Source: a virus
Lineage: Duplodnaviria > Caudoviricetes
Reading direction: 5' to 3' (one strand)
DNA length: 57,748 nt
Virus record (IMG/VR): IMGVR_UViG_3300042332_001032
Coordinates: 1-57,748 of that record
Within the stretch, counting starts at the first letter, position 1; each line of letters starts with the position of its first letter. A program made the position numbers and the translations under genes. Positions 8,627-29,388 of the stretch are shown here, in pieces. The notes beneath the pieces were generated by a model. The model saw nothing but the letters and a program-made list of their open reading frames with translations, was not told where the DNA came from and did no database searches.

Positions 8627-8643
8627 ATTATTTTATTATTTAA

Positions 8644-10042
8644 GGTGAGTGGCTGAGAAATCTAGGCGATCTTTAGTCGTCTAGATGAATCAGCTAAAAT
8701 ATTTTTATAAATCTTAATATTTTTTGTAAAAAATACGTTCGTCTGAGATAAGTAATAATAGATGATCGGAAAAGTACAAGAACTAAAAGAGAACGAAATG
8801 CACAAAGCATTTAAGTTCCGTTTGCTTCCTACAAAGGAGCAGGAAGTTCTTTTGGCAAAGCATTTTGGCTGTTCAAGATTCATCTATAATCATTTTTTAG
8901 CTGAAAAACAGAAGCATTATTCGGAAAACAAAGAGACACTAAAATTCAATGTTTGTCAAAATATGCTTATAAAGCAGAAAAAGGACGAAGGTTATGATTG
9001 GCTTAAAGAAGTTAATTCTCAATGTTTAGTAGCGACATTGGTCAATTTAGAGACAGCATATACAAACTTTTTCAAGAAAAAATCTAAATTCCCTCGTTTT
9101 AAATCAAAAAAGAACAAAAATAGTTTCAATATTCCTCAACATGTTTCTTTGAAAGAACGTAACGTAGTTCAAATTCCAAAGTTCAAAGAAGGAATCAAAT
9201 TTGTTAAGCACAGAGAACTAAAAGGAGTTATTAAGAGCGCAACTGTTTCAAAGAATCCTTCTGGAAAATATTATATCTCTTTTCTTTGTGTTATAGAAAA
9301 ACCAACTAAACACAAAAAGACTGGAAAGAGCATCGGAATTGATTTAGGATTAAAGGATTTCATTATTACTTCTGAGGGACAAAGGTACTGTAATCCTAAG
9401 TTCACTAAAAAGTACGAGGTTAAGTTAGCAAGAAAACAAAGAATTTTAAGCAGAAAGGTAAAAGAATCGAAAGGAAGAGACAAAGCTCGTTTGAGCGTTG
9501 CAAAGGTACATGAGAAGATAACCAATTCTCGGAACGATATGCAACATAAAGTCTCCTCCAAGTTAGTAAGAGACTATGATCTGATTGCAATAGAAGACCT
9601 GAACGTGAAAGGAATGGTTAAGAACCATTGCTTAGCTAAGGCAATATCAGATGTAGCTTGGTCAAGCTTTGTGACCAAATTAAAATACAAAGCAGAATGG
9701 AACGGAAAAGAAGTGATTGTAATAGATCGTTTCTACCCGTCTTCCAAAACATGTAGTTGCTGTGATCACATCAAAGAGTCGCTTAGTCTCGATGAAAGGA
9801 CTTGGACTTGTTCTAAATGCAACACAATACATGACAGAGATGTTAATGCTTCGAAAAACATTTTAAGAAGAGCATTAGCAATTCAATCGGCAGGAACTGT
9901 CGATAACAGGAATGGAGCTAAGGTAAGACCAAAGGAGATCTCAAAGGTTTCTAGAGGCACTGGCGTTGAAGTTCTTAAAAAGAAGAATGGACGTAAGTAC
10001 ATTCTGAAGCCAGTAGGTCTTTAGTGTCTACAGGTAGTTCAC
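8644..10042 (+). mobile_element. IS200/IS605-family (IS1341-type, tnpB-only) element 1
   Basis: TTAA target, left hairpin with AAAT guide, tnpB, right hairpin with GAAG guide and TCAC end. Confidence 0.92.
8762..10024 (+). CDS. tnpB: RNA-guided endonuclease TnpB
   Basis: KAFKFRL N-terminus, RuvC GIDLG / IEDL / DRDVNA, CxxC..CxxC zinc ribbon; alternative start 8798. Confidence 0.97.
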   Translation: MIGKVQELKENEMHKAFKFRLLPTKEQEVLLAKHFGCSRFIYNHFLAEKQKHYSENKETLKFNVCQNMLIKQKKDEGYDWLKEVNSQCLVATLVNLETAYTNFFKKKSKFPRFKSKKNKNSFNIPQHVSLKERNVVQIPKFKEGIKFVKHRELKGVIKSATVSKNPSGKYYISFLCVIEKPTKHKKTGKSIGIDLGLKDFIITSEGQRYCNPKFTKKYEVKLARKQRILSRKVKESKGRDKARLSVAKVHEKITNSRNDMQHKVSSKLVRDYDLIAIEDLNVKGMVKNHCLAKAISDVAWSSFVTKLKYKAEWNGKEVIVIDRFYPSSKTCSCCDHIKESLSLDERTWTCSKCNTIHDRDVNASKNILRRALAIQSAGTVDNRNGAKVRPKEISKVSRGTGVEVLKKKNGRKYILKPVGL

Positions 10043-10062
10043 GTAAAGCTAAGATTAACTTC
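9885..10062 (+). ncRNA. Predicted omegaRNA of element 1 (scaffold + ~20-nt flank-derived guide GTAAAGCTAAGATTAACTTC)
   Basis: Scaffold from ATCGGCAGGAACTGTCGAT to TTCAC is conserved with compensatory changes across copies; boundaries approximate. Confidence 0.75.
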
Positions 10063-12222
10063 ATAGAACGCGTTTTTATGCGCTAAGCTGGTAAATGTAT
10101 TAGTGTTTGCTATTACCGTGTATGTTTGATTAGGTTGTAATAAGAACTTCGGTATTACGTGCTGTACGACATTCGCGTTTGATGCTGTGCATATATACGA
10201 ACCATTAAATTGAGGTGCTTGTTGCGGAGCTGTTGCTGTAGTGACAGCTGTTCCTTGATAGTAAACCGTAAATGCTTCTAATACACCTTGAGTTTGTACG
10301 GATTCACCATTTATTTTTAATGTTAAAACTGAAGGGCAATTTTTTGTAGTAATGTTAGCAGTCGCGGAGCCGAACATTGTTGTTATAGGGGATGTGCAAC
10401 TATCAGACATTTTATAACGTGCTTTAAGTTTATCGCTACTTATCACCCATTCAGATAGATCTGAATCTTGACCGAATGTAGTAGACCATGATACAGACGG
10501 CTTATCACAAATTACCTTATTTGCAAACGGTTCAACACACGTTGGATCGAAATAACTAAATAACGAGCAATAATTTTCCCACAAATAATTTATATTTCTA
10601 TTAACAACAATAGAGGTAACAGGTTCGTTTTGTCCAATAAAAAGCTCTTCTTTTTTATACTTTGGCGGTTTATACCCTTTACAATACGTACCATCGTATT
10701 GTAAGGTAGATCTGAATATCTCTATATTATCCCACATACGCTGAAAGGATTTATTATACACCCAATCCTGTATATACTCATCTTTATCGATCAATACCTG
10801 TTCGAGAGACCAAAAATTAGACGGTAGAGAGCTCTTTGTTGCTCTTTGTTTTAAAATGTGTACGTATTTGATAATTTTATCTCCGAATGTTACTAATGTG
10901 CTTCTAAACTCATCCTGATATATGCTGTTTATGTTTTCTACGCATTTTTTATCTTTAAATAAATAATCAAATTCAATACCAGTTCTTACGTATTTTCTTA
11001 CAAATGTATTATATGTTACATATATTATTTGCTTATTAAAGTTCGTGTTAATTTTTTTAGGTATCTGTGTTGTATCAATAGCGTATTTAAAAAGAAAATT
11101 ACCTGTGTAATCATACACTCTTATCGAGTTACTAGTTAATACGTGTACCTGATCAATTTCGTCAATAGCTACACTCAGCGGTGATACTAAATCACTGTCA
11201 ACAATGGTTGTTATCCAATTACCAGCAGGAGTGTAGCATTTAACACAATTGTTACCTGTATCTGTAACCCAGACGTTATCGTTGTTATCAATATGTATAT
11301 CATTAGGCTTTAAAAATTTATTTGTAGAAGCAATTGTACCGACTCCTCCCCATAAATTAAGCAACGTCCATGGTTTATTTGCAGTTACATCAAAACTATA
11401 TACAGCTACCTTACATTGCACGTTATCTAGCACGTATATATGATTAGCGCTATTTATCGCGATACCGCATATACTAGAAAACCGTACCACATTATCTATC
11501 GTGTATCGTACCCCTAATTGCGTAGACGTGTAATTAGATGAAAGCACGTAAAATGTCGTAGAGCGAGAAACGTAAAGTATATTGTCTCTAGAAGCAATAC
11601 CAGTATAAAAACATTTTTGTGTCGAGGAGCAATTACCGATAGGTTCGTAATAATCATCGATTAAAGGTATATTTACATTCCATATACCATCATCACACCG
11701 CGAACTATCATTACCGTCACAAGGTTCGGAGTTCCATATCTTTGCGTACTCGTTATTATCCCTTGTCATCTTCCATGTTATAGGTAATTCAGCTTTTGCT
11801 GTCGAACGCATCTCCCAATCCCAATCTGTACAGTATTTACCGAAACAGGATTTCTTAGTACACTCATGTCCTTGAAACGATAAGCATGGATCTATATCTG
11901 TACCAACACACTCTAAATCTTTCCACTTTACAACTCGAGGATTTGTTGCACTGCAATCAGTTTCACTCCAGTATATAGTTTTACAATTAAATTCGTTTTC
12001 AGGTAACGGCCCTAGCCAACCGTAGTACTCAATATAATCATAGAGCTGACAGTTTCTACTATCCAATTGCAAAAGACCGTTATGCATTACGCGTAACGAG
12101 TTATTGATATTATCTTCAACAGCAATTTCGTTAGGCATTATAAGACCAGTCTTATTACATGAAACTGGTAATTCCATACCTTTAGGAACACATCTTGTAA
12201 CGTCTATTAAATTGTTAATCAT
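10039..12222 (-). CDS. NHL-repeat virion protein
   Basis: KFLKPNDIHID..NVWVTDTGNN, PLSVAID NHL motifs; Cys/Trp-rich N-terminus. Confidence 0.8.
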   Translation of the reverse strand: MINNLIDVTRCVPKGMELPVSCNKTGLIMPNEIAVEDNINNSLRVMHNGLLQLDSRNCQLYDYIEYYGWLGPLPENEFNCKTIYWSETDCSATNPRVVKWKDLECVGTDIDPCLSFQGHECTKKSCFGKYCTDWDWEMRSTAKAELPITWKMTRDNNEYAKIWNSEPCDGNDSSRCDDGIWNVNIPLIDDYYEPIGNCSSTQKCFYTGIASRDNILYVSRSTTFYVLSSNYTSTQLGVRYTIDNVVRFSSICGIAINSANHIYVLDNVQCKVAVYSFDVTANKPWTLLNLWGGVGTIASTNKFLKPNDIHIDNNDNVWVTDTGNNCVKCYTPAGNWITTIVDSDLVSPLSVAIDEIDQVHVLTSNSIRVYDYTGNFLFKYAIDTTQIPKKINTNFNKQIIYVTYNTFVRKYVRTGIEFDYLFKDKKCVENINSIYQDEFRSTLVTFGDKIIKYVHILKQRATKSSLPSNFWSLEQVLIDKDEYIQDWVYNKSFQRMWDNIEIFRSTLQYDGTYCKGYKPPKYKKEELFIGQNEPVTSIVVNRNINYLWENYCSLFSYFDPTCVEPFANKVICDKPSVSWSTTFGQDSDLSEWVISSDKLKARYKMSDSCTSPITTMFGSATANITTKNCPSVLTLKINGESVQTQGVLEAFTVYYQGTAVTTATAPQQAPQFNGSYICTASNANVVQHVIPKFLLQPNQTYTVIANTNTFTSLAHKNAFYEVNLSFT

Positions 12223-13804
12223 AAAAATTTACTACCTTAATAATATTTGCAAACGTTTGTACTCTCACGCTACCATTAACTGTAGTTGTAGTAATATTTA
12301 ATGTTTTATATCCCGCTGTATTGTATATTTTTTTGAAATCTAAATACATACTAGCGCTCGTAAGAGTTTGTACGGTACCGTCTCCGTAATCAATTTTAAT
12401 ACTTAATAGAGAACTTATATTGGTAGTAAGGTTTTCGAATTTTACTTCTCTACCAGCTAAAACAAATCTATTAGGCGTGTATATTTTAACGTAAGGTGCA
12501 GCTCTAACAACAGCCGTTAAGGACTCGCATAACGTTGTACGCTTAACATTCGGAGTATAATTGATAAGATCAATACCTTGTTCGTAGAGCGAATTTAATA
12601 TTAAATCGGTGTAGTAAGCTGTAGTAGCATCTGGGCTAACTACCTCGGTGCCTTTATATAGCACTTGATGTTTATATTTTATATTACTATTAAACTCTGC
12701 TAGACTACTCTGAGGAGTATAGTTGCTACCAATGCCAGTCTGTACTGATGATAAATGAGATGTAAAAGCGGGGCATCTATCTACGTTATTTGCATAAGTT
12801 GTAGCTAGAATTGTTGCTTTATAAAAATCCGAGGATGGTGTACCGGTTAAAAACGTTTTAAATGTCGAAATATCTGTATCATATGTACTTGTTTTAGCGG
12901 GATTAGTACAGCTCGTTACGTATGCGCTCGGGGAATCAGTAAACAGTAAATACACATTACTCGTACCATCGCCACTCAACGCCTGGTATCCACTTGACAT
13001 TAACGTTTTTAAATATCTTTTATCTCCGTTAGCGGGTTGTACTTTAATTATATCGTTTATATCTGTTATTAAATGATTGGTAGCTGTAAAATAATTTATA
13101 GCACGCGGTTTTATAACAGTGTCAACTATATTAACAATTTCGCTATGTATTTGAGACATAGTACCCTGATCAGTAAAGAGTGTAATAGTATTAAAGACAC
13201 TTTCACATTTTATATCTTGGCAAACTTTCACATTTAGTATAGTGTCTTTTTCAAGAGAGAACGTGTAAGGCGATAAACCATCTTGAGAGTACTTTAAAAA
13301 ATACGGAAACTTATTAATTTCTGAACCTAAGGATGTACTAACTGACCAGTTTTTTGTAGAGAGGTTCCAAATTACATAATCTTTCTCACAACCACATAAA
13401 ACAGTTGTAGCGGTAATTGTAGAGGGTTGCACATGTGGTTCTTTTATCCATCTTTTTTCATACGAATTACCACACTTTACGTTTTCCCATGTAGAAGGTT
13501 TATGAGTAAACGTATTTAAAGGCATAGTTGCCGGGGATGAGCATCCTTTAAATGTTGACCATTTCCATGAAACCCCATAAGCCTCAACGCACGGATCTGT
13601 TAATGGAGTAGGTGTAACGATACCACCAACATTTAGTAGCGTTGTATAAAACAGCCCTTCAAATGCTGTAGGTGTTAGGTTGTGATAGAGATTAATAATA
13701 TTATCTCCTGCAGTAGACGTAATGTTATTCAGTGTGTCTCCGTTAAATGTGGTAACTGCTGATAGAAAATTATTAATACTATAGTTTCTTGTTATAGTTG
13801 TCAT
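12215..13804 (-). CDS. Virion protein with C-terminal PKD-like domain
   Basis: V.FEN....IDYGDG....IY...GYKT motif. Confidence 0.7.
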   Translation of the reverse strand: MTTITRNYSINNFLSAVTTFNGDTLNNITSTAGDNIINLYHNLTPTAFEGLFYTTLLNVGGIVTPTPLTDPCVEAYGVSWKWSTFKGCSSPATMPLNTFTHKPSTWENVKCGNSYEKRWIKEPHVQPSTITATTVLCGCEKDYVIWNLSTKNWSVSTSLGSEINKFPYFLKYSQDGLSPYTFSLEKDTILNVKVCQDIKCESVFNTITLFTDQGTMSQIHSEIVNIVDTVIKPRAINYFTATNHLITDINDIIKVQPANGDKRYLKTLMSSGYQALSGDGTSNVYLLFTDSPSAYVTSCTNPAKTSTYDTDISTFKTFLTGTPSSDFYKATILATTYANNVDRCPAFTSHLSSVQTGIGSNYTPQSSLAEFNSNIKYKHQVLYKGTEVVSPDATTAYYTDLILNSLYEQGIDLINYTPNVKRTTLCESLTAVVRAAPYVKIYTPNRFVLAGREVKFENLTTNISSLLSIKIDYGDGTVQTLTSASMYLDFKKIYNTAGYKTLNITTTTVNGSVRVQTFANIIKVVNFYD

Positions 13805-13809
13805 GCTTA

Positions 13810-15633
13810 TTATTCTAAATCTATATTAGTACCATTTTCTAGTTGTATACATGTAACAAAGTCTTCTAGCGCAAGACCTGCACACAAAACCGGTAGTGGC
13901 TGTAAACACGTACAGCAAGATAATGTACCGAAACCGAAAATATCCGGTCTACCAGAAGATAGATTCTGTACTAAGTTATTCCACATCGTAAACTTATCCA
14001 TGTTTACATATGCGTTATAGTACGGGACAGGGCCGCCGCCAGTTTTATAATTACCCATACCCTGAACGCTTAATAGATAATAACCATCAGTTAAACGAAC
14101 CGCCATAGAGTAAGAGGTACTCGTAGACATGCTAACCGCTGATACACCAGGTGCCAGGTTCCTTGCTACAAATGGAACAGGTCCGTACCCATAACTACCA
14201 CCGTCTCCTCTGTAACAAAGTATTCGTTTGTTTGTAAGAAGTACATAATGGAACTCGTTACTAGCACCGTCAACAAAATACTCTCCAGCTCCTAAAGGAA
14301 GACCTGGTAAAGTTGCTGGCGTATTAGAACGAGCAGTTAACCAACTAAAACTACCTAGATGTCTTGTACTGGTCGTTAACCGATATATCTTAGTAGGATC
14401 TGACTTAAGACATACAAAGCAAGAGTTTCCTGGATCTCCGATTTGAGCAAATAATATATCGCTATCATCTAAGTTTAAAATTTGTCTTGCTTCGTAATCA
14501 GCACTCGTATACGTGTCACTTCTCAATGTAACATGCCACACCGTGTCATCGTATTTGGCAACAATGCAGTCAGAGTTATGTGCTTGGTTAATTGCTACTA
14601 CTCTACTTACATTTGTTAATATAACCCGTGGCGGGTTATATCTGTTTCTCAAATCTAACTCAACGAGATCTCCGCTGGTTAATAAGACGACTTGGCAGTT
14701 TGTCCATGCATAAGATGACGGCATGAATATGTCTTTAAATGCATGTAAATTATCACTTATCCAAGAATAATGAAACGGCCCTCTCGATTTAATAGGATCT
14801 GTAGTATCTTCGGTATAGAATACGTTACCGTTCCGGAAAATAGCTGCCTGGTTATGGTTACCGGCACACATTCTTAAAATACCACTTAACCCGTAATACG
14901 ATATACCACCAAAAGAAGTGGTATAGGCGTAAGTAGTATAGCTTGAACCTACAATAGGGGCGTAATATGAGTCCTTATATTCAAGTGGTGCGTACATCAC
15001 ATCTCTATTAACGAAATTAAATGTATTCCATCTATACCCACCTTCTCCTTGTAACGTAAATCTATCGAGAAGATCCTGTCTTTTCGGTACATCTCCAGGA
15101 CAGCAAATCCTCGAACTTAAAGAGTTAACTTTATTAGCAAGGCCGCAATAAGTGCTCTCGAGACTTTTAAAGTTATTGATAATCTTTTGATAAGAATCTC
15201 CTATGTACTCATCTGTGCTTATACCATCGGTGTAAAAGCATTGCGGAGTAGTTACAGGTGTTAACATTGTCTTACCAATAGAGTGGTTAACGACAATAGC
15301 CGATAAAGATTTTATACTTGTTACAAGAGAACATGAAAGGTCGCTAAGTGTATTAAAACTTGAATTTAATGGTACCCTCGTATCCGTAACACATGTATTA
15401 GCAGGTGGTATACTTACTAGGTCACAATTGTTTATATTAGAATTAGATATACTACATTTCGGAGTTTCAGGTATTTTAAGTTTAGCTAGGGTAGCGCTTA
15501 AGGATTCGATTGTACCTAATATTTCACATGCATTAACATCTAGAATTTGAAAATTATCGTTAATCTTTCTTAAAGATGTGCCAAGATACTCGTAATCAGC
15601 GATTACTTGTGTTGATCTGTTACATGCGTCCAT
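13810..15633 (-). CDS. Putative tail fibre/receptor-binding protein
   Basis: Three copies of the G.S..KI..NF..L motif followed by a beta-rich domain. Confidence 0.65.
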   Translation of the reverse strand: MDACNRSTQVIADYEYLGTSLRKINDNFQILDVNACEILGTIESLSATLAKLKIPETPKCSISNSNINNCDLVSIPPANTCVTDTRVPLNSSFNTLSDLSCSLVTSIKSLSAIVVNHSIGKTMLTPVTTPQCFYTDGISTDEYIGDSYQKIINNFKSLESTYCGLANKVNSLSSRICCPGDVPKRQDLLDRFTLQGEGGYRWNTFNFVNRDVMYAPLEYKDSYYAPIVGSSYTTYAYTTSFGGISYYGLSGILRMCAGNHNQAAIFRNGNVFYTEDTTDPIKSRGPFHYSWISDNLHAFKDIFMPSSYAWTNCQVVLLTSGDLVELDLRNRYNPPRVILTNVSRVVAINQAHNSDCIVAKYDDTVWHVTLRSDTYTSADYEARQILNLDDSDILFAQIGDPGNSCFVCLKSDPTKIYRLTTSTRHLGSFSWLTARSNTPATLPGLPLGAGEYFVDGASNEFHYVLLTNKRILCYRGDGGSYGYGPVPFVARNLAPGVSAVSMSTSTSYSMAVRLTDGYYLLSVQGMGNYKTGGGPVPYYNAYVNMDKFTMWNNLVQNLSSGRPDIFGFGTLSCCTCLQPLPVLCAGLALEDFVTCIQLENGTNIDLE

Positions 15634-15648
15634 TATTGATTATTTATG

Positions 15649-15677
15649 TTGCTTGTTCCGGTTTCACCAGTTATGAT
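15649..15677 (+). promoter_or_regulatory. Sigma70-like promoter with GTTCC extension
   Basis: TTGCTT-GTTCC..17 bp..TATGAT. Confidence 0.65.
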
Positions 15678-15684
15678 ATAAATT

Positions 15685-16218
15685 ATGAACATTTTTGTTA
15701 CTAATGAAGACCCTATCGTTTCAGCAAGAGAGCTCTGTGACCAGCACTGCAGATCGAAAATGATGATAGAATCTGCAATTATGCTACAGAATTGCTTTAC
15801 AAACGAGCAGCTCAATGATGAACTGTGTCCTCGAACAAAGACCGGTAAACCTAGAAAATCAGGAAAAGGTTACGCCAAGCATCAATGTACTGTTTGGGTT
15901 AAAGAATCAAAAGAAAATTATATGTGGCTTGTTGAACATGCTTTGGAAATGTTTAATGAAAGAAATCATAGATGGCCAGGTTCAAATGAACATTTCACTA
16001 AGACATTTATAAAATGGTGTAAAGATAATAAAGATTATACTATACATACAAAAACAGCACTCACGCCCTTTACAGTAGCTATCAGTCAAGACAGTAAATG
16101 TCGTACAGTTATTAATAATTTTGATAATTTAGCAGTTACCGAACAATATAAACAATACATTAAGCACGATAAAGACTTTGCTACCTGGACGACAAGAAAT
16201 AAGCCTAGCTGGTATTGA
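15685..16218 (+). CDS. denV: Pyrimidine-dimer DNA glycosylase (DenV/Pyr_excise family)
   Basis: MNIF....P...A..LCD.H..KM..ESA.ML, H.CT.W, NY.WL..H. Confidence 0.8.
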   Translation: MNIFVTNEDPIVSARELCDQHCRSKMMIESAIMLQNCFTNEQLNDELCPRTKTGKPRKSGKGYAKHQCTVWVKESKENYMWLVEHALEMFNERNHRWPGSNEHFTKTFIKWCKDNKDYTIHTKTALTPFTVAISQDSKCRTVINNFDNLAVTEQYKQYIKHDKDFATWTTRNKPSWY

Positions 16219-16258
16219 TTTAGTAGATTAAGTATTAGGTGCACGTATAATTATCTTT

Positions 16259-17815
16259 ATGAAAAACGAAATTACTGCATTTCTTAAACAAGAATATAAT
16301 GATTCATTACGGTTTTTAAAACCGAAAATGTTCATTAAACGATTTGGTCAAGATGTGTACAATAATATATGCGATTTTACACTTTTTTTAGAACATTCTG
16401 TACCATTTTCAAGACGAGTTTATTGTTTTCTCAACGATATAAGCGCAACACCTCTCTGTAAAGTATGTAATAAGGAGGTGAAATATAATCATAACACAGG
16501 TTATCAAAAATATTGTTCGAATGCTTGTAGACTATCTGATATTAAAAACATACAAGATATTAAACGACAGACTAATATTAGAAAGTATGGAACAACAAAT
16601 GTACTTACAAGTGTGTACGGTAAAGCAAAAAAGAAAGAAACATGTATTGAAAAATACGGAGTCGATAATTATGTAAAAACAGACGAATATAAAAATAGAA
16701 TAAAAACAGGAGATATAACGAGAGTATACAATACTGAGAAAAATAAAATTGTAAGTAGAGAAAAATATTATAAATTACTTGCCGTAAAATATCCAACTCT
16801 TACTCCACTTTTTTGTGTTGATGAATATAGAGGTGCGAATTCATACGATATTGTTTACCCGTGGCAGTGTGTAACATGTAACAAAAAATTTGAGCACTGG
16901 ATTAATAATAATTACCCCATCTTATGTCCGTATTGTAAGCCAAAGGGTACGTATTATGAGAATGTACTTAAAAAATTTTTTGAAAAATATAACATAGAGT
17001 ATATTTTTCGAGACAGAAAAAAACTTAACAATCTTGAAATCGACTTTTATTTACCGGGGTGTAACTTAGGCATAGAAATTAACGGTTTGTACTGGCATTC
17101 TGAAAAAAATATTACAGATCGTAATTATCATTTTAAAAAGACAGAAGAAGCTTTAGCAAACAACATAAGACTTATTCAGATTTTTGAGGATGAGTTTTAT
17201 AGTAAACAGGCAATTGTATTCTCGAGATTAAAGCATATATTAAACTTGCAAACCCGTTCAATATACGCAAGAGAGTGTTGTATTGAATCAATTACTAATC
17301 ATGTGAAAAGTTTATTCAATGAAAAATATCATATACAGGGAGATGTTAATACGAGTATCAACTACGGGTTATATTATAAAAAGAGACTCGTAGCCGTTAT
17401 GACGTTCTCAAAGCTTAGAAAAGCATTAGGTAGTAATTCTGAAGAAAATGTATACGAGCTTGTAAGATATTGCACAGTAAAAAACTTTAACATAGTCGGG
17501 GGAGCTGGAAAGCTTTTAAAATACTTCTGTAAAAATAACAACGTTAAAAAAATAATTAGCTACGCTGATAGAAGATGGTCATTAGGTAGCGTGTATGAAG
17601 CCATTGGTTTCACGCGAGAAAAAATAACATCTCCTAACTATTGGTATACAAAAAATTACACTACTCGTTTGCATAGATTCAATTTTCAAAAACATCTTTT
17701 AAAGGGTAAATTAGACGTGTATGATGAAAACCTCACTGAATGGGAGAATATGAAAGCCAACGGCTATACAAGAGTGTGGGATTGTGGTCATTTAAAGTAC
17801 GTAATGCAGACCTAA
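16259..17815 (+). CDS. Hef-like putative homing endonuclease
   Basis: KYG repeats, EIDFY...IEINGLYWHS PD-(D/E)xK motif, C-terminal ELVRY/SYADRRWS/WDCG domain. Confidence 0.8.
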   Translation: MKNEITAFLKQEYNDSLRFLKPKMFIKRFGQDVYNNICDFTLFLEHSVPFSRRVYCFLNDISATPLCKVCNKEVKYNHNTGYQKYCSNACRLSDIKNIQDIKRQTNIRKYGTTNVLTSVYGKAKKKETCIEKYGVDNYVKTDEYKNRIKTGDITRVYNTEKNKIVSREKYYKLLAVKYPTLTPLFCVDEYRGANSYDIVYPWQCVTCNKKFEHWINNNYPILCPYCKPKGTYYENVLKKFFEKYNIEYIFRDRKKLNNLEIDFYLPGCNLGIEINGLYWHSEKNITDRNYHFKKTEEALANNIRLIQIFEDEFYSKQAIVFSRLKHILNLQTRSIYARECCIESITNHVKSLFNEKYHIQGDVNTSINYGLYYKKRLVAVMTFSKLRKALGSNSEENVYELVRYCTVKNFNIVGGAGKLLKYFCKNNNVKKIISYADRRWSLGSVYEAIGFTREKITSPNYWYTKNYTTRLHRFNFQKHLLKGKLDVYDENLTEWENMKANGYTRVWDCGHLKYVMQT

Positions 17816-20425: not shown

Positions 20426-20454
20426 AGTGTTATATTTATTTAATCAGGTTAGCT

Positions 20455-20601: not shown

Positions 20602-20602
20602 A

Positions 20603-21277: not shown

Positions 21278-21351
21278 AAGTGAAATTATTTATTCTACTC
21301 AGCGTATTTTCCTCGGGGTTACCTCAAAATTCCTACATAATATCCATAAAT

Positions 21352-22299
21352 ATGCTTATGTTCACGTTTTTACTCGGGTTAGCTGCTTTACTTGTTGCAG
21401 GTTGTGCAGCGTATTTTTCAGTTCTCGGTATTGCTACTCTCTTTATAGGTAGTTACTACCAGGTAATGGTTATGGCTGGATCCTTAGAGTTCGGTAAACT
21501 AGTAGCTACTTCATATCTTTACCGTTACTGGAATAAAACAACATTTGTATTAAAAATGTATCTTATTATAGCGGTATTAACTTTAATGGGTATTACTTCT
21601 CTCGGTATTTTTGGATATCTTTCAGCAGCATATCAAGTAAACTCCAATAAAAACGAACAAATAGAACAACAGATTGTAATAATAGAGCAACAAAAACAAA
21701 ACTTTAAAAACGAAATAGACCAAGTACAAACTCGTATTGAAACTCTTAATAAGTCTCGAATAGAACAAGAGAAGCGTTTGCCTAATTTATCAAGTAAATC
21801 TGCAAAACCGATTTACGAAGATATACAAAGAGCAGGAGATGAGATAAAAAACCTTAATGTTCGTACCCAGCAATTAAACAACTCTTTAATTGAAAAGGAT
21901 AATGAAGTTATAGCACTTAAAACAGAAGCTGGTAAAGCAAAAGATATCGGTACATTTAAATTTATAGCTCAATCCTTTAATATGTCTCTAGATACTATTG
22001 TCAAGATTTTTATATTAATAATAGTATTAGTCTTTGATCCTTTAGCCGTATCTCTTGTACTTGCATTTAACGTTGCAACAAAAGGTAAGATCGTAAAAGA
22101 GCCTAATATAACACCTAAACCTCAATTAATTGAAGAACTAAAAGAAATTGAACAGTCTGTAGCAACAGTAGAGTCAGTAGCAGCAGAACCAGTAGCAACA
22201 GAACCAGTAGTTCCTATTGAAACAACCTCAACTATAGATCAAGACATTGTTGAAAACTTAAAAAAAGAAGTAAAGACTTTTTTAGGTAAAGCTCGCTAA
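21352..22299 (+). CDS. Membrane protein with coiled-coil
   Basis: AYFSV.G...LE.GKLV, ITS.GIFGYLS, VFDPLA; start after ATAAATA. Confidence 0.8.
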   Translation: MLMFTFLLGLAALLVAGCAAYFSVLGIATLFIGSYYQVMVMAGSLEFGKLVATSYLYRYWNKTTFVLKMYLIIAVLTLMGITSLGIFGYLSAAYQVNSNKNEQIEQQIVIIEQQKQNFKNEIDQVQTRIETLNKSRIEQEKRLPNLSSKSAKPIYEDIQRAGDEIKNLNVRTQQLNNSLIEKDNEVIALKTEAGKAKDIGTFKFIAQSFNMSLDTIVKIFILIIVLVFDPLAVSLVLAFNVATKGKIVKEPNITPKPQLIEELKEIEQSVATVESVAAEPVATEPVVPIETTSTIDQDIVENLKKEVKTFLGKAR

Positions 22300-22347
22300 A
22301 ACTTGCCCTACAAGTGCTTCAAAACATAAACCTTCATTTGTATTTAT

Positions 22348-22400
22348 ATAAATAAGGACTGAGTGAAAACCGAAGGATCTTTAGTCGTTCGGTAGTTCAC
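22348..22400 (+). mobile_element. 53-bp minimal element: left-end leader fused to right end through a single hairpin
   Basis: TTAT|ATAAATAAGGACTGAGTGAAAA-CCGAAGGATCTTTAGTCGTTCGG-TAGTTCAC. Confidence 0.88.
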
Positions 22401-22436
22401 AACCTTCATCCTTTTTCTTGAGACTGTAAGGCATAA

Positions 22437-22796
22437 TTAGAGTGTTATTTTTTGAGCACTATTTAAAACTGATTGTGGAAATTTTTCAGCCACAAAAGCT
22501 ACTCTTATACCATTGTTTTTACCTTGCAAGGCCCAACCGTAAAGAGAGTTAGCAACAGCTGTACTAAGCTTATCAACACCTTCAAATACGTAAACACCTG
22601 GGTCAGTTGGAGGTCTTAATAATTCCCACAGTTGCATTTTAGTAACATCATAAAATCTTTTTACAGGTAACCCTGCTTTTAAGAAATCTACAGACGCACA
22701 TAGCGATACTTTACCTTCAATCAGTAGTACGTTATTCTGTAAACGCTCTTCACAGAGTTCTTGTGTTTTCTTTATAATGTTTTTAAGGTCATTCAT
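22437..22796 (-). CDS. Hypothetical protein
   Basis: 119-aa ORF, TAAATA upstream. Confidence 0.65.
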   Translation of the reverse strand: MNDLKNIIKKTQELCEERLQNNVLLIEGKVSLCASVDFLKAGLPVKRFYDVTKMQLWELLRPPTDPGVYVFEGVDKLSTAVANSLYGWALQGKNNGIRVAFVAEKFPQSVLNSAQKITL

Positions 22797-22809
22797 ATTT
22801 GTATTTATG

Positions 22810-23265
22810 TTATTTAGCTAACCCCAGGTGTTTTTCTGTTAGAATTATAAACATTGAACCTTTTTTAGTAGCAAATTGCTGTGCTGCATCCCATTTAGCT
22901 CTATTCTTAACATATTCAGCTTGTCTTCTCAGTGATGATTTTATGTTACGAGTAGGTTTTGGTGGTATAGTTTGTACAGCAGGTTTAATTTCAACAAGAA
23001 ATTTTTTAAGGTTACCCTCTTTATCTCTCATTGTTATATTAAAGTCTACGAAGTATCTACTGATACGACCAGTTAAAGGGTTTTCGTAAGGGATTACAAC
23101 AGATTCAGATCCCCAAGAAATAATATTAGGATTGCTATCAAGGATTCTAGCCACAGATAATTCCCAGGATGATCTTAATAAGATCGGAAACGTACCCTTA
23201 TATTTTTCCGGAAATCGTGGTTGGAACACACTTTGTCTATACTTCTGAGTTCTTTTCTTGTTCAT
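22810..23265 (-). CDS. gp4: Head completion nuclease
   Basis: P..PEKYKG, RSSWE, WGSE, YFVDF, VEIKP, N.AKW.AA, F.ILTE. Confidence 0.95.
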   Translation of the reverse strand: MNKKRTQKYRQSVFQPRFPEKYKGTFPILLRSSWELSVARILDSNPNIISWGSESVVIPYENPLTGRISRYFVDFNITMRDKEGNLKKFLVEIKPAVQTIPPKPTRNIKSSLRRQAEYVKNRAKWDAAQQFATKKGSMFIILTEKHLGLAK

Positions 23266-23684
23266 ATAAAATAAAAATTCAATCTAATCGAATGATGACA
23301 TTCTAAATGAATCTAAAGCAAAATTAACTTTAGAATTCTTAGATTTGAATTTTCTAAAAACTGTTTCTTTCGGAACAGAAACTCTATATTTCACTTTAAA
23401 GTTTTTTAACCAAGAATGTAACTCTTTCCAATCTTTGACTTCTGGTACTTCGGTTTGCTTCCATAGCTCCTCTAAGTACGTTTTCGAAGGCAATTCTGGA
23501 TAGAATTGTTTATTTTTGGTTATTATCAACCTAAAACCTCTTTGTGCTATTTCGGCACTAGAAGCTAAAGGATCTGGTGAATCTTTATGTAGAATATTTC
23601 CTATCGTAGAAGAATAAAATTGTTGATTTTTCATATAAGTTATTTATACGAATTTGTATTCAAATTAACATTCAGAAAATAATA
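23266..23684 (-). mobile_element. 419-bp duplicated cassette, copy 2
   Basis: Near-identical to 694..1112; ends immediately before the gp4 ATG. Confidence 0.75.
23284..23634 (-). CDS. Hypothetical protein of the duplicated cassette
   Basis: 116 aa, TATAAATA upstream. Confidence 0.8.
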   Translation of the reverse strand: MKNQQFYSSTIGNILHKDSPDPLASSAEIAQRGFRLIITKNKQFYPELPSKTYLEELWKQTEVPEVKDWKELHSWLKNFKVKYRVSVPKETVFRKFKSKNSKVNFALDSFRMSSFD

Positions 23685-23689
23685 ACCTC

Positions 23690-24601
23690 TTATACAGGTG
23701 TTGTTGTAGGTGTCGGTGTTGGCGTAGGAGTCTCTGTCGGAGTCGGCGTCTCTGTCGGAGTCGGCGTCTCTGTAGGAGTCTGAGTTGGCGTCTCTGTAGG
23801 AGTCTGAGTTGGCGTCTCTGTCGGTGTCGGAGTTGGCGTCTCTGTAGGTGTCGGTGTTGGCGTCTCTGTCGGTGTCGGAGTTGGCGTCTCTGTAGGTGTC
23901 GGTGTTGGCGTAGGAGTCTCTGTAGGAGTCTCTGTCAGTGTCGGAGTTGGCGTCTCTGTAGGAGTTACTGTAGGAGTTGGTGTAATGGAAGGAGTTGATG
24001 TGAGTGTCGGTGACTGAGAAGGATATGCAGAAATTGGAGGTAATTTAAATATATCTCTACTGTACCCTAATATTAAAGAACCTGTATTAAAATAAAATAA
24101 TGTATATCCTTTATTATCTGATGCTGATAACGAAATACTTCCCCCCACATACACGCTATCACTAGAGGTAACGACTATATTATTGCTTACAGGGGAAACT
24201 GATATCATACACTGAGAAATATCAGTCGGTACAAAGGTATTAGTTACAGATACTACAGCAAAAGAGTCAAATTGTATGTCGAAGAAATTAACAGATGTAT
24301 CTACTATTACATAATCCCTATAACGTAACGCGCGTACAGTCTCATTATCTGTATTAACATATATATACGAAGGATCGTCTTGAGGTACACGCATATCTAC
24401 CCTGAAATAGATATCAGAATAACTAAAAATCTCTGCAGCTATATTTTTACCGTAATCAGATAATAACCTCCAGTCTCCCTCTGGTATTGTTGTATCAAAA
24501 CCACTATCTGATCTCTGTAAATCTACAGATAGAGCAGAAACAAAGGTTGAATATTTTGCTAAAAACTGCTTTACGCGTGTGTTTTTTTCTGTAGCTCCCA
24601 T
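23690..24601 (-). CDS. Virion-associated protein with Pro/Thr-rich C-terminus
   Basis: 303 aa ending in ~100 aa of TP(T/E) repeats. Confidence 0.8.
23693..24012 (-). repeat. Pro-Thr coding tandem repeat (TPTETP)
   Basis: Degenerate 18/24-bp units such as GGCGTCTCTGTAGGAGT. Confidence 0.9.
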
Positions 24602-24615
24602 ATAGGTATTACTTA

Positions 24616-24750
24616 TTAGAAAAACTTACTCAATACCGCATCTTTCACCTTAACGTCATCCATAAGATCGGCGTAACTTAATAATTCAGTGTATCTTTGA
24701 TATGTCTCCGTATTTACGTAATTAGGATCGTTAGGTTGTATGATTTGCAT
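24616..24750 (-). CDS. Small hypothetical protein (44 aa, not in ORF track)
   Basis: [11 protein letters not shown]...; ATAAATA upstream. Confidence 0.45.
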
Positions 24751-24805
24751 AATTGATACAGATATTTATGCAAACTGAAAGTGTTTTAAGAAGATGATTA
24801 GTGAA

Positions 24806-26029
24806 TTAACAAAAAGCGTTTAAAATATTTTGAGCAAACAAGAAAGCAGGAATAGTCAACACAGCTAAAGCTCCTAAAAAGAACATAGGCGGATTATTGT
24901 CCGCGTAGCTGCTCATTAGTTCTTTTTCTAACTCATCTTTTTCTTTTATACCTTGCTGCATAAAATCATCAGCATTTACAACCCCGTTACCGAATAACGC
25001 TGTACCTTTAATTTTACTGCGCACGTTAGCAACAGAAATTTTTGTAAGAGCTAAGGTGTATTTATGTACCCATAGCTCTCTAATTATATCTTTTACAGGT
25101 CTTTCGATATAACAACCCACTATACCATAGTAGCTTTGTTCTGGTATAGGTTCTGGTATAATTCTAAGAGTCTGTGATCTATTATCGAACCTAAAGTGAG
25201 GAGTCATAGCTAGAACTTTCGTTCTAGTATCAATAAACCCTTTTAACACTTCCCATGTTGTTAAATCAAAACCGAAGTTACCTAGCATATAACTTGAGTA
25301 GATTTGCTGTGACATAGCTTGCTCTAGAGTAAACAACGTATTAATACCTGTAGTTTCACCGTAATTAAACGAGAAGCAATCTACAACTTTTCTATAACTT
25401 GCTAAATCGACATCCCATCTCGGAAGATTGGTCATAGCAGAGCTTACACTACTAACTTGAGTAGTTGTAACACTACTTACCTGAGTAACCGTATTAACTA
25501 GAGTTTGATATTCATATGTTATTATAGCGGAAACAGGTATACCGAAACTGTCAGTTGATAATGCAACTTGAAATGTATCATCAGGGTCAAGGTTTAGTAT
25601 ACCAGTGATAAGAGTAGGATCTGCGATCATTCCAATAGGTACATATACAGATGTTAATGCGTAGCCGGGTATTTGAGATGTAACTGGAGTTACTACAGTA
25701 GTTGATACTGTAGTAAAAACCGTAGATGACGCCATTTCAAACGATGTATACATCTCTGGGGTAGTATTCACCATTGTATCTACCTTTATACCTGCTCCGC
25801 GAGTATATATCTTAGAATCAAACACCAAATATTCTTCAGTATACCCTGCCCATTTTGTAAAGTATTCTATAGCATTAGTTATGTTACTATAGAGCTGTTG
25901 ATCTGAAATTTCTATATTTACGAGCGGGTAACCGAGTTGATACTTCACTCTTTCAGCTAGCGTATCATACGACGTAACCTGTGGGTTAAGAGACGTACCA
26001 CCAATATAATTTGCAGGAAAAACAGACAT
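24806..26029 (-). CDS. gp13: Neck protein gp13-like
   Basis: LGYPLVNIEI..QL, WV.KY.LAL.K, K..G..L.G...N, E...LE.EL....PPMFF.G. Confidence 0.88.
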   Translation of the reverse strand: MSVFPANYIGGTSLNPQVTSYDTLAERVKYQLGYPLVNIEISDQQLYSNITNAIEYFTKWAGYTEEYLVFDSKIYTRGAGIKVDTMVNTTPEMYTSFEMASSTVFTTVSTTVVTPVTSQIPGYALTSVYVPIGMIADPTLITGILNLDPDDTFQVALSTDSFGIPVSAIITYEYQTLVNTVTQVSSVTTTQVSSVSSAMTNLPRWDVDLASYRKVVDCFSFNYGETTGINTLFTLEQAMSQQIYSSYMLGNFGFDLTTWEVLKGFIDTRTKVLAMTPHFRFDNRSQTLRIIPEPIPEQSYYGIVGCYIERPVKDIIRELWVHKYTLALTKISVANVRSKIKGTALFGNGVVNADDFMQQGIKEKDELEKELMSSYADNNPPMFFLGALAVLTIPAFLFAQNILNAFC

Positions 26030-26058
26030 GATATACGTATTTAGTCCGTCATACTCAT

Positions 26059-27948
26059 TTACTGCTGAGCAGGTGGAGGTGTTCCTTGAGCTGCTCCAGC
26101 CTCGGGAGGTGCTCCAGCTCCTGGTGCGCCTTGCTCTCCTCCAGGAGCCTCAGCTTCTCCTCCACCGAATTCAGGTATTTCTCCTGCTCCAGGGGCTTCT
26201 CCACCAGAAGAGCTAGAAGGTGAAGGTTGATTAGAGCCACCACCAAATCCTTCCGTACCACCTCCGCCTTCTCCTCCCATTTGCGCAGACGCAAGCTCTC
26301 TAAAATTCGGACCAGAGCCTTCAATTTGCTGTAACTCCCACTTAAGAGCAGCATCTTTTTTCTGCCACTCTCTATTTTCTTTCATTAACTCATCCGAGAG
26401 ACCGAGGTAATATTTTTGTGCATAAGACGGTGCAATTGTGTTACTATTTACAGCATTTGTGTAATTATTAAATTTAATTTCAAATAGTTCCTGTTCCCTT
26501 AACGCCATGAACGACGTAGGAATATTCAGTTCAACTATTAAATGCCTCTCTCTTATTTTATATTGCTTATAAAGACCTTTTAATTTAAGATGAGTAATAA
26601 ACGAATCCTTTATACCTGCTGCAAATTGTCGCTGTATACGTATTATAAAACGAGCAAACCTTAGTTCTTCTCTTGTAATCTCTTTACCGTCTTTAAATGG
26701 CGTATCTGCAGCCATGAATCTACCTAACGGTACTTTAAGTGATGTGTATAATTTTTTAAGAAAATAGTCTAACTCTTTTATTTCCCCTAAATTACCCCCA
26801 GAGGGTAGAGTCTCGACGTCGTTACCGTTACCTTGGGCGTCTTTTGTGAACCAGTATGCATCTAGCATAGACTGCGGATCATAGACATTTGTCACTCTAC
26901 CACCTGAACCTTGATTAGTATCAAAATTCTTTTTTGTCCAGTACGCTTGCATTAAGCGTTTTAAATACGCTTCAGCTTTAGGAGCAGGCATGTTACCTGT
27001 ATATACTTTAAATTTTAAACGCTCTGGTGCACGAACGAGTCTATATATAACAACAGAATCTTCGATGAGTGATATCAACCTGTACGCTCTTTTTGCATTT
27101 TCAATATACGGTAAACGTATTGTTTTAAACTCATTCCAAATACCAGAGTGAATATAGGTTACTTGAGTTTGTTGTAAGAAAAATACCTCTTCTTGATCTT
27201 TTTTATTTATAGTGGTAGAAGGCTCTTGTACTAACTTTCTTAATAAGAATCCCTTTACGCTTTCATTTTGAACGTTATTATAAACAGGGTTTATAATCTC
27301 TGTAGGCACGCTAACTATACCTATAATACCATACTCAGGATGATCAGTTTCAATAACATTCTCAAAAAACAATTCTCCATCTATTAAAAATTGACGAAAA
27401 TATTCCCATCCTTTATTTTCAAGATCAAAGATGCTAATAAACTTTTTAAATTCTTTTTCTATTGTATTTTTTACTTCTTTGGGAAATTCACCACGGAGCT
27501 GGAATGTAGCAATTTCATCGTTTTCGTCTTTTACTAAACATTCATCTGCGATTTCGTCAATACAGTCTGCAAGCTCTGCATAAGCAGCCATTCTACGATA
27601 ATCTTGTAATCTTCTACTTTTGTCTTTATCAATGCTTGCGTATACAAAACTCTGATAGTCCTTGTTTATTAAAATATTACCCGGTGCACCTGCTGTAGAA
27701 TCTTGCGGAGATTGCTCGTATTGTAGAAATATAGATTCATCTTGAACATGTTGCTCTCTTCTCGATGTTACTTGACGGAACACATCGTATTTCGGGTTTT
27801 TCTGTACTATACTATCAATTATTTGGTACGCGTAAGGTAGCTTAGAAACAAAACTACCAAGTAAACTGGTCGTAGGTGCTACCTGACTGCCAGATGAACT
27901 ACCAGTACCAGGTACTGCATTTGCATTTGTATATGGTCTATAAATCAC
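26059..27948 (-). CDS. gp20: Portal protein
   Basis: YR.MA, IEDSVVIYRLVRAPER, GNMP..KAE.Y, TLPSG.NLGE, ITREELRF. Confidence 0.97.
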   Translation of the reverse strand: MIYRPYTNANAVPGTGSSSGSQVAPTTSLLGSFVSKLPYAYQIIDSIVQKNPKYDVFRQVTSRREQHVQDESIFLQYEQSPQDSTAGAPGNILINKDYQSFVYASIDKDKSRRLQDYRRMAAYAELADCIDEIADECLVKDENDEIATFQLRGEFPKEVKNTIEKEFKKFISIFDLENKGWEYFRQFLIDGELFFENVIETDHPEYGIIGIVSVPTEIINPVYNNVQNESVKGFLLRKLVQEPSTTINKKDQEEVFFLQQTQVTYIHSGIWNEFKTIRLPYIENAKRAYRLISLIEDSVVIYRLVRAPERLKFKVYTGNMPAPKAEAYLKRLMQAYWTKKNFDTNQGSGGRVTNVYDPQSMLDAYWFTKDAQGNGNDVETLPSGGNLGEIKELDYFLKKLYTSLKVPLGRFMAADTPFKDGKEITREELRFARFIIRIQRQFAAGIKDSFITHLKLKGLYKQYKIRERHLIVELNIPTSFMALREQELFEIKFNNYTNAVNSNTIAPSYAQKYYLGLSDELMKENREWQKKDAALKWELQQIEGSGPNFRELASAQMGGEGGGGTEGFGGGSNQPSPSSSSGGEAPGAGEIPEFGGGEAEAPGGEQGAPGAGAPPEAGAAQGTPPPAQQ

Positions 27949-27988
27949 TATTTTTATTTATTACCACTATCTTGATATTTCAATTTAT

Positions 27989-29388
27989 ATAAATAAGGAC
28001 TGAGTGAAAACCCATAAGTCTTTAGCCTATGGGATGAAACTCAGCCAAAATATTTTTAAATTATTTTTCATTTTTACTCTAAAAAGTAAACCGTCTGAGA
28101 TAAGTATAATAGATGATTGGAAAAGGACAAGAACTAAAAGAGAACGAAATGCACAAGGCATTTAAGTTCCGTTTGCTTCCTACAAAGGAGCAAGAAGTTC
28201 TTCTGGCCAAGCACTTTGGTTGCGTAAGGTTCATTTATAATCATTTCCTCAGTGAAAAACAAAAGCACTTTTTAGAAAATAAAACCACACCGAACTTCAA
28301 TCAATGTGCAGGAAATTTGGTAGCAAAGAAAAAAGAAGAAGGTTATGAATGGTTAAAGGAAGTTAATTCTCAAGTTCTTATATCAACTTTAATGAACTTG
28401 GAGACAGCTTATGGTAACTTTTTTAGAAAAAAATCAAAGTTCCCTAAATTCAAATCCAAAAAGAATAAAAACTCTTTTCAAATACCTCAACATGTTTCTT
28501 TGAAAGAGAAGAACGTGGTTCAAATTCCAAAGTTCAAAGAAGGTTTGAAATTCATTAAGCACAGAGAACTCAAAGGAACAATTAAATCGGCTACTATCTC
28601 CAAGAATCCTACAGGTAAATACTACATTTCATTTCTTTGTGTTGTAGAAAAACCAACTAAGCACAAAAAGACAGGGAAAAGTATTGGAATTGATTTAGGG
28701 TTAAAGGATTTTATCATTACTTCTGAAGGACAAAGATATTGTAATCCAAAGTTTTTAAAGAAGTACGAGGTTAAGTTAGCAAGAAAACAAAGAATTTTAA
28801 GCAGAAAAGAAAAAGGATCAAAAGGAAGAGACAAAGCTCGTTTGAGCGTCGCTAATGTACATGAGAAGATAACCAATTCTCGTAACGATATGCAACATAA
28901 AGTTTCCTCCAAGTTAGTAAGAGACTATGATCTGATTGCAATAGAAAACCTGAACGTGAAAGGAATGGTTAAGAACCATAAACTATCTAAGGCAATATCA
29001 GACGTAGCATGGTCAAGCTTTGTGACCAAATTAAAGTACAAAGCACAATGGAACGGAAAAGAAGTGATTGTAATAGATCGCTTTTATCCTTCCAGTAAAA
29101 CATGTAGTTGCTGTGATCATATCAAAGAAAGCCTTTCATTAGATGAAAGAACCTGGACTTGTTCTAAATGCAACACAATACATGATAGAGATGTTAATGC
29201 TTCAAAGAATATTTTGCGTAGAGCATTAGCAATTCAATCGGCAGGAACTGTCGATAACAGGAATGGAGCTAAGGTAAGACCAGAAGTTGTTTCTAAAGCA
29301 ACTAAAGGCACTGGCGATGAAGTTCTTAAAAAGAAGGGTAGAAAATATGCCCTGAAGCCGAACGATCTTTAGTCGTTCGGTAGTTCAC
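27989..29388 (+). mobile_element. IS200/IS605-family (IS1341-type, tnpB-only) element 2
   Basis: TTAT target, left hairpin with AAAA guide, tnpB, right hairpin and TCAC end. Confidence 0.92.
28113..29372 (+). CDS. tnpB: RNA-guided endonuclease TnpB
   Basis: RuvC GIDLG / IENL / DRDVNA and zinc ribbon intact; close paralog of 8762..10024. Confidence 0.97.
   Translation: MIGKGQELKENEMHKAFKFRLLPTKEQEVLLAKHFGCVRFIYNHFLSEKQKHFLENKTTPNFNQCAGNLVAKKKEEGYEWLKEVNSQVLISTLMNLETAYGNFFRKKSKFPKFKSKKNKNSFQIPQHVSLKEKNVVQIPKFKEGLKFIKHRELKGTIKSATISKNPTGKYYISFLCVVEKPTKHKKTGKSIGIDLGLKDFIITSEGQRYCNPKFLKKYEVKLARKQRILSRKEKGSKGRDKARLSVANVHEKITNSRNDMQHKVSSKLVRDYDLIAIENLNVKGMVKNHKLSKAISDVAWSSFVTKLKYKAQWNGKEVIVIDRFYPSSKTCSCCDHIKESLSLDERTWTCSKCNTIHDRDVNASKNILRRALAIQSAGTVDNRNGAKVRPEVVSKATKGTGDEVLKKKGRKYALKPNDL

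Follow-up and report, generated by a model that had tools for sequence, protein, structure and literature searches.

Left-end guide, insertion motif and a candidate motif-reading residue of TnpB probably change together among IS200/IS605-type elements of a lake-water phage

We analyzed a stretch of viral DNA, the contig of virus record IMGVR_UViG_3300042332_001032 (57,748 bases; called the window throughout, at its full length). It represents part of the genome of a large tailed lake-water phage, the record being estimated as about 27% complete. The window carries elements of the IS200/IS605 family, namely, two that contain only a tnpB gene (E1 and E2), at least six gene-less mini-elements (minis), and one relic of 53 bp. 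Since the fourth base of the left-end guide covaries with the last base of the insertion motif, three kinds of element in this phage use three insertion motifs. Probably, the reading of that last base (position -1) by the nuclease TnpB changes together with the guide and the motif, and residue 66 of TnpB is our candidate for the reader.

The proposed mechanism would run as follows. A Y1 transposase (TnpA) from elsewhere would cut and join the top strand at sites located by base pairing, as is established for the family; each subterminal hairpin is preceded on its 5' side by a four-base guide, which would pair with the tetramer at the cleavage and target site. TnpB, guided by RNA from the right end of its own element, would cut the emptied site and for that reason would have to read the insertion motif as its transposon-adjacent motif (TAM). 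The -1 base would be read largely by residue 66, which lies on the helix of the recognition (REC) domain that carries the equivalents of Y52 and S56 of ISDra2 TnpB; Gln would read A (TnpB1, encoded by E1), Ala would read T (TnpB2, encoded by E2), and in the TTAC type Cys would accompany C. Co-resident elements would exchange left ends, C-terminal/RNA segments, and N-terminal segments by recombination, which would sometimes leave mismatches such as that of the relative L008, described below.

Left-end guides and insertion motifs

E1 (1,399 bp; 8644-10042, plus strand) stands directly 3' of the motif TTTAA, its putative TAM (8639-8643, plus strand). Its left end carries the 4-nucleotide (nt) DNA guide AAAT (8658-8661), directly 5' of the foot of an imperfect hairpin with the loop CTTTA (8662-8684), and its right end (10006-10042) comprises GAAG (10006-10009), a hairpin (10010-10034), and the cleavage motif TCAC (10039-10042); all of these lie on the plus strand, as does tnpB1 (8762-10024; 420 amino acids, P0001). 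The exact limits of E1 are supported by the gene on its right, since a minus-strand open reading frame (ORF) of 727 amino acids (10039-12222) keeps the same C-terminus once 8644-10042 is excised in silico. The stop codon of this ORF comes from the terminal TCA of E1 (10039-10042), and without E1 the TTAA at 8640-8643 would supply a TAA instead.

E2 (1,400 bp; 27989-29388, plus strand) follows the putative TAM TTTAT (27984-27988, plus strand) and has the guide AAAA (28007-28010) before its left hairpin (28011-28033), tnpB2 (28113-29372; 419 amino acids, P0002), and a right end made up of GAAG (29354-29357), a hairpin (29358-29380), and TCAC (29385-29388), again all on the plus strand. Its guide-to-motif spacing is 18 nt, versus 12 to 17 nt in most relatives. 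The right ends of E1 and E2 read GAAG, hairpin, and then TAGTTCAC. Both elements have subterminal imperfect palindromes at either end and no terminal inverted repeats; TTTAA, TTTAT, or TTTAC is found 5' of the left ends, and the right flanks are unrelated. The relic (22348-22400, plus strand) is exactly 53 bp long, as had been claimed for it, and follows a TTTAT flank (22343-22347). Its left end, with the guide AAAA at 22366-22369, is of the E2 type (identical to that of E2 at 30 of 30 nt) and is joined via one hairpin to the right-end tail TAGTTCAC; the relic lacks GAAG.

A preliminary description of this DNA had paired AAAT with TTAA in E1, AAAA with TTAT in E2 and the relic, AAAG with TTAC in two of the minis (m0 and "end" below), and GAAG with TCAC at the right ends, and had noted one-base deviations in three further minis. 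On re-reading, all the motif positions that it gave proved correct; m0 has CTTAC and "end" TTTAC, the deviating flanks are TTTAT at m44 and m46 and TCTAC at m55, and the right ends have GAAG and TCAC, the relic being without GAAG. He et al. (2011; PMC3201880) describe for IS608 a TTAC cleavage and target tetramer 19 nt 5' of the hairpin foot, paired by AAAG, and report that an altered left guide retargets insertion predictably. By analogy with IS608, the guides of the window elements would form base pairs with their targets.

To see how far the rule extends, we scanned a viral collection with a pattern that specified guide, hairpin loop, and post-hairpin motif and left the flank free. We kept distinct left ends in which no fewer than 7 of the 8 stem positions pair, and looked 10 to 19 nt upstream for the expected tetramer, TTA plus the complement of guide base 4. 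It was present in 140 of 147 such left ends (pattern-selected, on viral contigs, and, here as in the counts by guide, among the matches listed), that is, in 87/92 with the guide AAAA, 30/30 with AAAT, 21/23 with AAAG, and 2/2 with AAAC. A mixed set of window copies and relatives had the complementary TTAN 10 to 19 nt upstream in 75 of 83 distinct left ends. The covariation of guide and target is thus far above chance. The covarying pairs are AAAT-TTTAA, AAAA-TTTAT, AAAG-TTTAC, and AAAC-TTTAG, with a constant GAAG/TCAC at the right end. The pairing rule had been worded for a tetramer and holds as such, but the motif is really one of 5 nt, usually TTTAN.

Individual relatives illustrate the rule. 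L007 has the guide AAAT with TTTAA 14 nt upstream; L045 and L050 have AAAA after TTTAT, and L049 has AAAG after TTTAC at a spacing equal to theirs. More AAAA/TTTAT cases occur among the close TnpB relatives on viral and metagenome contigs. In L218, two copies have AAAG left ends flanked by TTCAC instead of TTTAC, which may be a variant of the third motif base.

The third kind of element is represented by six gene-less copies, 353 to 368 bp long where complete, which share one left end with the guide AAAG. On the minus strand, m0 (1-196) has the flank CTTAC at 196-192 and runs from 191 to 1, off the window start; a second copy (2599-2895) is 5'-truncated and without a left-end hairpin, its right end stopping at 2599 and its 5' limit being approximate; and m44 (43848-44205; 353 bp, 44200 to 43848) follows TTTAT at 44205-44201. 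On the plus strand, m46 (46115-46479; 360 bp, 46120-46479) follows TTTAT at 46115-46119 and has its AAAG at 46136-46139, m55 (55170-55542; 368 bp, 55175-55542) follows TCTAC, and "end" (57574-57748) has the flank TTTAC at 57574-57578 and runs from 57579 off the window end. The guide of each of m0, m44, m55, and "end" is likewise AAAG. Further copies are found in L119, L120, and L250. With both ends, no protein gene, and several copies, the minis resemble palindrome-associated transposable elements (PATEs) and miniature inverted-repeat transposable elements (MITEs). Over their last 140 to 150 nt, they show a 75% likeness to the 3' end of tnpB with the right end, from which we predict that they have probably kept the coding sequence of a guide RNA; at its gathering thresholds, Rfam reported only five tRNAs across the window and no guide-RNA family. 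The 5' arm of the left hairpin of m55 (55175-55230) is of the right-end type, and this hairpin cannot fold; the left end of "end" (57579-57640) is a long, fully paired palindrome with the AAAG guide buried in it; both copies are probably disabled.

Residue 66 of TnpB and the last base of the motif

Both TnpBs of the window match the Pfam families OrfB_IS605, Cas12f1-like TNB, and HTH_OrfB, and ISDra2 TnpB is their best natural relative of solved structure (HMMER, E 5e-72). D194, E278, and D360, the catalytic D-E-D residues by the ISDra2 numbering, and the zinc-finger cysteines (CxxC pairs) align to ISDra2 and are invariant in 10 close relatives. TnpB1 and TnpB2 are 88% identical (369/420), and their 51 differences are unevenly spread: 18 fall in the 48 residues 53-100, versus 33 in the 372 elsewhere (Fisher p 9e-7). 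The preliminary description had remarked on this divergence and had called the two proteins nearly identical in RuvC. The former is there, but residues 391-420 are as diverged as the N-terminal stretch (11/30); the latter is true of the protein (8/208 differences in residues 183-390) but not of the DNA, with a synonymous divergence of 0.46 in codons 183-390. With that value, the two genes are not recent duplicates.

The HMMER alignment is gap-free from window residues 14-105 to ISDra2 residues 4-95 (offset +10) and allows the published contacts to be transferred. ISDra2 TnpB reads its TAM, TTGAT, through residues of REC and of the wedge (WED) domain, and the contacts used here are those given by Nakagawa et al. 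(2023; PMC10097598). At the -1 T, ISDra2 Y52 corresponds to F62 in both window proteins, and S56 corresponds to Q66 in TnpB1 (codon CAA, 8957-8959) and to A66 in TnpB2 (codon GCA, 28308-28310). K76, which contacts the -3 G, becomes S86 in both, which fits T in place of G at -3; F77 (-2 and -4) becomes Q87 in both; Q80 (-2 A) becomes V90 in TnpB1 and I90 in TnpB2; and T123 and N124 (-4 T and -5 T) give way to a shorter loop beside N123 or Q123, respectively. On this alignment, the base that differs between the E1 and E2 motifs would be the very base touched by the clearest residue difference, Gln versus Ala at position 66. Contacts of Gln with adenine and of Ala with the thymine methyl group are chemically reasonable, and TnpB1 and TnpB2 would, on this reading, have switched TAMs. 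The earlier proposal that residues 53-100 are the TAM-reading segment fits in that the segment overlaps the ISDra2 contacts and contains the best predictor of the guide, but the segment as a whole does not cosegregate with the guide, as L008 exemplifies. A further proposed determinant, in WED, was the difference SFNIP/SFQIP; it has to be abandoned, given that L007 is AAAT/TTTAA with Q123 and that, among the close AAAT and AAAA relatives, N123 is found in E1 only.

We compared residue 66 with the guide class in two sets. Set A comprised 50 non-identical TnpBs of at least 340 amino acids whose own left end was typed; set B comprised 53 distinct TnpBs chosen by left-end pattern, with its non-AAAA rows common to set A, and all its counts are among the matches listed. 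With the guide AAAA, position 66 was A in 15, C in 2, and T, I, and Q in 1 each of the 20 proteins of set A, and A in 13, N in 4, K in 3, S, I, and F in 2 each, a gap in 2, and Y in 1 of the 29 of set B. With AAAT, set A (19 proteins) had Q in 10, a gap in 7, and S and K in 1 each, and set B (15 proteins) had Q in 6, a gap in 7, and L in 2. With AAAG, C was found in 4 of 9 in set A, the others being S, M, Y, N, and E (1 each), and in 3 of 8 in set B, with five other residues in the rest. With AAAC, both proteins of set A and the single one of set B had V. In set B, Q66 thus occurred in 6/15 AAAT proteins versus 0/38 others (Fisher p 2e-4, kinship ignored), A66 in 13/29 AAAA proteins versus 0/24 others, and C66 in 3/8 AAAG proteins versus 0/45 others.

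Position 66 ranked first of all 420 positions for mutual information with the guide class (1.42 of 1.71 bits, z 12.6; 43 typed TnpBs, label shuffles); the runner-up was position 120 (z 8.1), and positions 61-63 were also within the top 12. The proteins that combine Q66 with AAAT are only 38 to 47% identical to one another and 44% identical to TnpB1. In a tree built without columns 58-95, E1, L007, and L008 nest in the AAAA/A66 clade, and L049 (AAAG, C66) is sister to L045 and L050 (AAAA, A66; 84% identical). The preliminary description had also predicted a TTAC-type TnpB outside the window, and one exists in a related viral contig: L119 matches the left end of the minis at 35 of 35 nt, follows TTTAC, and encodes a TnpB that has C66 and is 60% identical to TnpB1.

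These data lead us to a narrower proposal, which we hold tentatively and with slightly less than even confidence: in TnpBs with a long alpha-3 helix, residue 66 may be close to a one-letter code (Gln for A, Ala or another small residue for T, Cys for C) that coevolves with guide base 4, so that the three kinds of element would split both insertion sites and nuclease targets among themselves, with recombinants of the L008 type mismatched.

A number of observations weigh against a reading of the -1 base by residue 66. L008 combines Q66 with an AAAA guide after TTTAT, and L064, L076, and L099 carry C66 with AAAA/TTAT, for which reason a specificity of C66 for TTAC was dropped. At column 66, S, T, I, N, K, F, and Y are likewise found with TTTAT, as are S, M, Y, N, and E with AAAG. 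From 7/15 (set B) to 7/19 (set A) of the AAAT-type TnpBs lack the helix segment with residue 66 and must therefore read TTTAA in another way, as the TnpB-derived repressor TldR does via Q116 and L75 (PMC13622181). Only four supported independent contrasts (AAAT versus Q66, AAAG versus C66, and AAAA versus A66 being those tested) were available, with about 2.5 to 3 concordant and 0 opposite (sign test p 0.125 to 0.25), too few pairs for significance. The guide/target rule has its own exceptions: L041 (AAAA) is without TTAT, m55 sits at TCTAC, and 2 of the 5 typed window minis (m44 and m46) as well as L120 sit at TTTAT despite their AAAG guide. A G-T wobble or a C-to-T drift after insertion could account for the latter; as a general explanation, the wobble was set aside as an idea only, with 0 of 23 AAAG left ends showing TTAT alone (among the matches listed).

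The AAAT/TTTAA proteins of L216, L222, L303, L305, L318, L319, and L247 form a subfamily without about 7 residues of the REC helix on which residue 66 lies and carry the motif DSLALANAQ, which is reminiscent of the published interface of the TTTAA-reading TldR (S74, L75, N79, Q81).

The pair itself is less clean than isogenic proteins, yet close enough for residue swaps. It had been presented as a clean natural pair, which it is not: synonymous divergence reaches 1.78 in codons 46-135, versus 0.46 in codons 183-390, and some relatives are mosaic. L008 mixes E1- and E2-type parts (an E2-like left hairpin, an E1-like promoter and N-terminal segment, an E2-like C-terminus) and is therefore a recombinant, and L001 and L002 combine an N-terminus of the E2 type with a C-terminus of the E1 type. 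The high N-terminal divergence together with the mosaics indicates an old N-terminal module swapped by recombination; such shuffling, judging from these sequences, is what the pair points to, and not substitutions that accumulated quickly and recently after a duplication.

The same facts can be turned into a different explanation, namely, that the covariation is real but that the TnpBs are blind to the -1 base (a TAM of about TTTAN or TTTAH), the N-terminal module being neutral or tuned to the heteroduplex or the guide RNA. The synonymous divergence speaks for it, as it shows the segment to be older and not merely faster evolving in protein, and so do the mosaics, Q66 with AAAA/TTTAT in L008, and C66 with TTTAT. 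The literature adds that the substitution S56A only lowers cleavage by ISDra2 TnpB (PMC10097598) and that relaxed TAM positions have been reported in a review for some TnpB orthologs. All the same, it is hard to see from blindness alone why position 66 should come first of 420 for guide class, why Q66 should be confined to AAAT in set B among proteins as little as 38% identical, or why the position should be the known -1 contact of ISDra2; in addition, omega is 0.58 in codons 61-90, versus 0.14 overall. We consider blindness to the -1 base rather unlikely and keep to the reading in which guide, motif, and TnpB change together.

Mobility, relatives, and genomic surroundings

Neither the window nor any of five related viral records, which include a complete genome of 202,880 bp with terminal repeats, contains a match to the Y1 transposase family PF01797, and the elements are therefore nonautonomous. 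Speculatively, the transposase comes from elsewhere, or the copies persist through nuclease-driven copying alone. In L280, a distant AAAT/TTTAA element on a viral contig, the left end and tnpB are separated by a divergent and apparently truncated tnpA (2788-3363, minus strand; PF01797, E 1.5e-20, matching profile positions 2-88 of 121).

The missing transposase could also mean that the elements are immobile leftovers, the left-end motif being mere history and the tnpB genes heading for decay or domestication. Other signs point the same way. Seven close relatives (L001, L002, L003, L005, L040, L121, and L206; 82 to 90% identical to TnpB1) have an intact right end and no left-end hairpin, and TnpA could therefore not move them; the neighboring gene abuts the tnpB promoter region. 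L121 comes from a metagenome-assembled genome (MAG), the six others from contigs of viral or metagenome origin. These seven may reflect nuclease-driven copying or a domestication under way. In the window, the left hairpins of m55 and "end" are spoiled, and one mini has no left end. Against general immobility stand the two intact tnpB frames with invariant catalytic residues and an omega of 0.14, the occurrence of the same element types at many sites, each with the matching motif, and the fact that the window represents only about 27% of the genome, and TnpA may be supplied by the host. We regard immobility as very improbable.

Empty sites were sought in two ways. The flanking 727-amino-acid protein led to nine loci, the best 51% identical and none spanning the C-terminus, and no empty site of E1 was readable from them. 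Among the contigs of four sequencing runs (X1 to X4) over 8401-28400, there was no clean element-free joint. One X4 contig from a diverged relative (depth 3.6, with 42 letters on the shorter side) connects 8648 to 10035 through 16 unrelated letters, so that E1 would keep its first 5 bases and its last 8; this is either a deletion relic or an assembly artifact. An X2 joint from 10012 to 22376 was rejected as an element-free site and turned out to be a repeat join between right-end hairpins.

A scan of bacterial and archaeal genomes gave a single close relative, L121 (82%, on a 13-kb MAG contig), all the rest being at most 47% identical; DNA nearly identical to the window occurs in lake-water metagenome runs. 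By PHROG matches, the TnpB elements sit in the structural module of the phage, with a tail-fiber-like protein (7868-8626), a major head protein (17897-19339), a head-tail adaptor (24806-26029), and a portal (26059-27948). Beside the major head protein gene lies an ORF of 518 amino acids resembling homing endonucleases and HNH proteins (16259-17815; phrog_3339, E 1e-112), which is located in the lowest-GC stretch of the window (31%) and is a second sort of selfish element within the structural module. The five tRNA genes found by Rfam form a cluster at 50101-52644. Both contig ends (1-196 and 57574-57748) lie inside mini copies that point outward in opposite orientations and differ in sequence, and the assembly probably broke there because of the mini-element repeat.

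Comparison with known systems

The guide/target part of our finding is real and ordinary, and its principle is already published. For ISGst1-5, Meers et al. (2023; bioRxiv 10.1101/2023.03.14.532601) describe covariation of the guide with the TAM and the transposon-encoded motif (TEM), clade-specific TAMs, and a TAM common to TnpA and TnpB. As the coupling of transposase target, guide, and TAM is thus known, the window elements add new members, not a new principle. What is new is a specific candidate determinant, residue 66, of the last TAM base. Our search of the open literature, outside of which lay subscription journals and supplements, including the alignments of Meers et al., found no paper in which the residue equivalent to S56 is assigned to the -1 base of the TAM. 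The prediction is that a swap among Q66, A66, and C66 between natural TnpBs that are 88% identical should switch the last TAM base. If true, this would offer a rational handle to widen the target range of small genome editors, and it would show how a protein that reads a motif keeps up with a nucleic acid that reads it too. The window also documents dense, diversified TnpB elements, with minis predicted to encode guide RNA, among the structural genes of a large phage from a lake.

With IS608 of Helicobacter pylori, the window elements share subterminal imperfect hairpins, a 4-nt guide 5' of each foot (left AAAG with TTAC, right GAAN with TCAN), and insertion 3' of the target without duplication; the window minis and L119 carry exactly AAAG/TTAC. 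They differ in that tnpA is absent from the window, the target as read here spans 5 nt (TTTAN), and the elements reside in a phage. The motif lies 16 to 22 nt from the hairpin foot (a linker of 12 to 18 nt plus the guide) versus 19 nt in IS608, and TCAC ends 8 nt 3' of the foot versus 10 nt.

ISDra2 TnpB of Deinococcus radiodurans (PDB 8H1J, 8EXA, and 8BF8) has the same domains and catalytic residues and aligns without gaps over the REC helix. Its TAM differs (TTGAT), as do the contact residues, which in the window proteins would be F62, Q/A66, S86, Q87, and V/I90, and the WED loop is three residues shorter in the window.

The ISGst1-5 elements of Geobacillus stearothermophilus resemble those of the window in having several families per genome with similar ends and in their guide-TAM covariation, and the TnpB-only elements mobilized in trans and the PATE-like minis encoding guide RNA are those to which we liken the window elements. 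They differ in residing on a bacterial chromosome with a resident TnpA, and the available part of that paper gives no residue-level account of how TnpB tracks the -1 base.

Finally, Efa1 TldR (bioRxiv 10.64898/2026.09.22.753285) likewise reads a TTTAA TAM via REC and WED. It differs in its shortened alpha-3 helix and its key residues, Q116 and L75, and so resembles the AAAT-type TnpBs without the residue-66 segment and not TnpB1.

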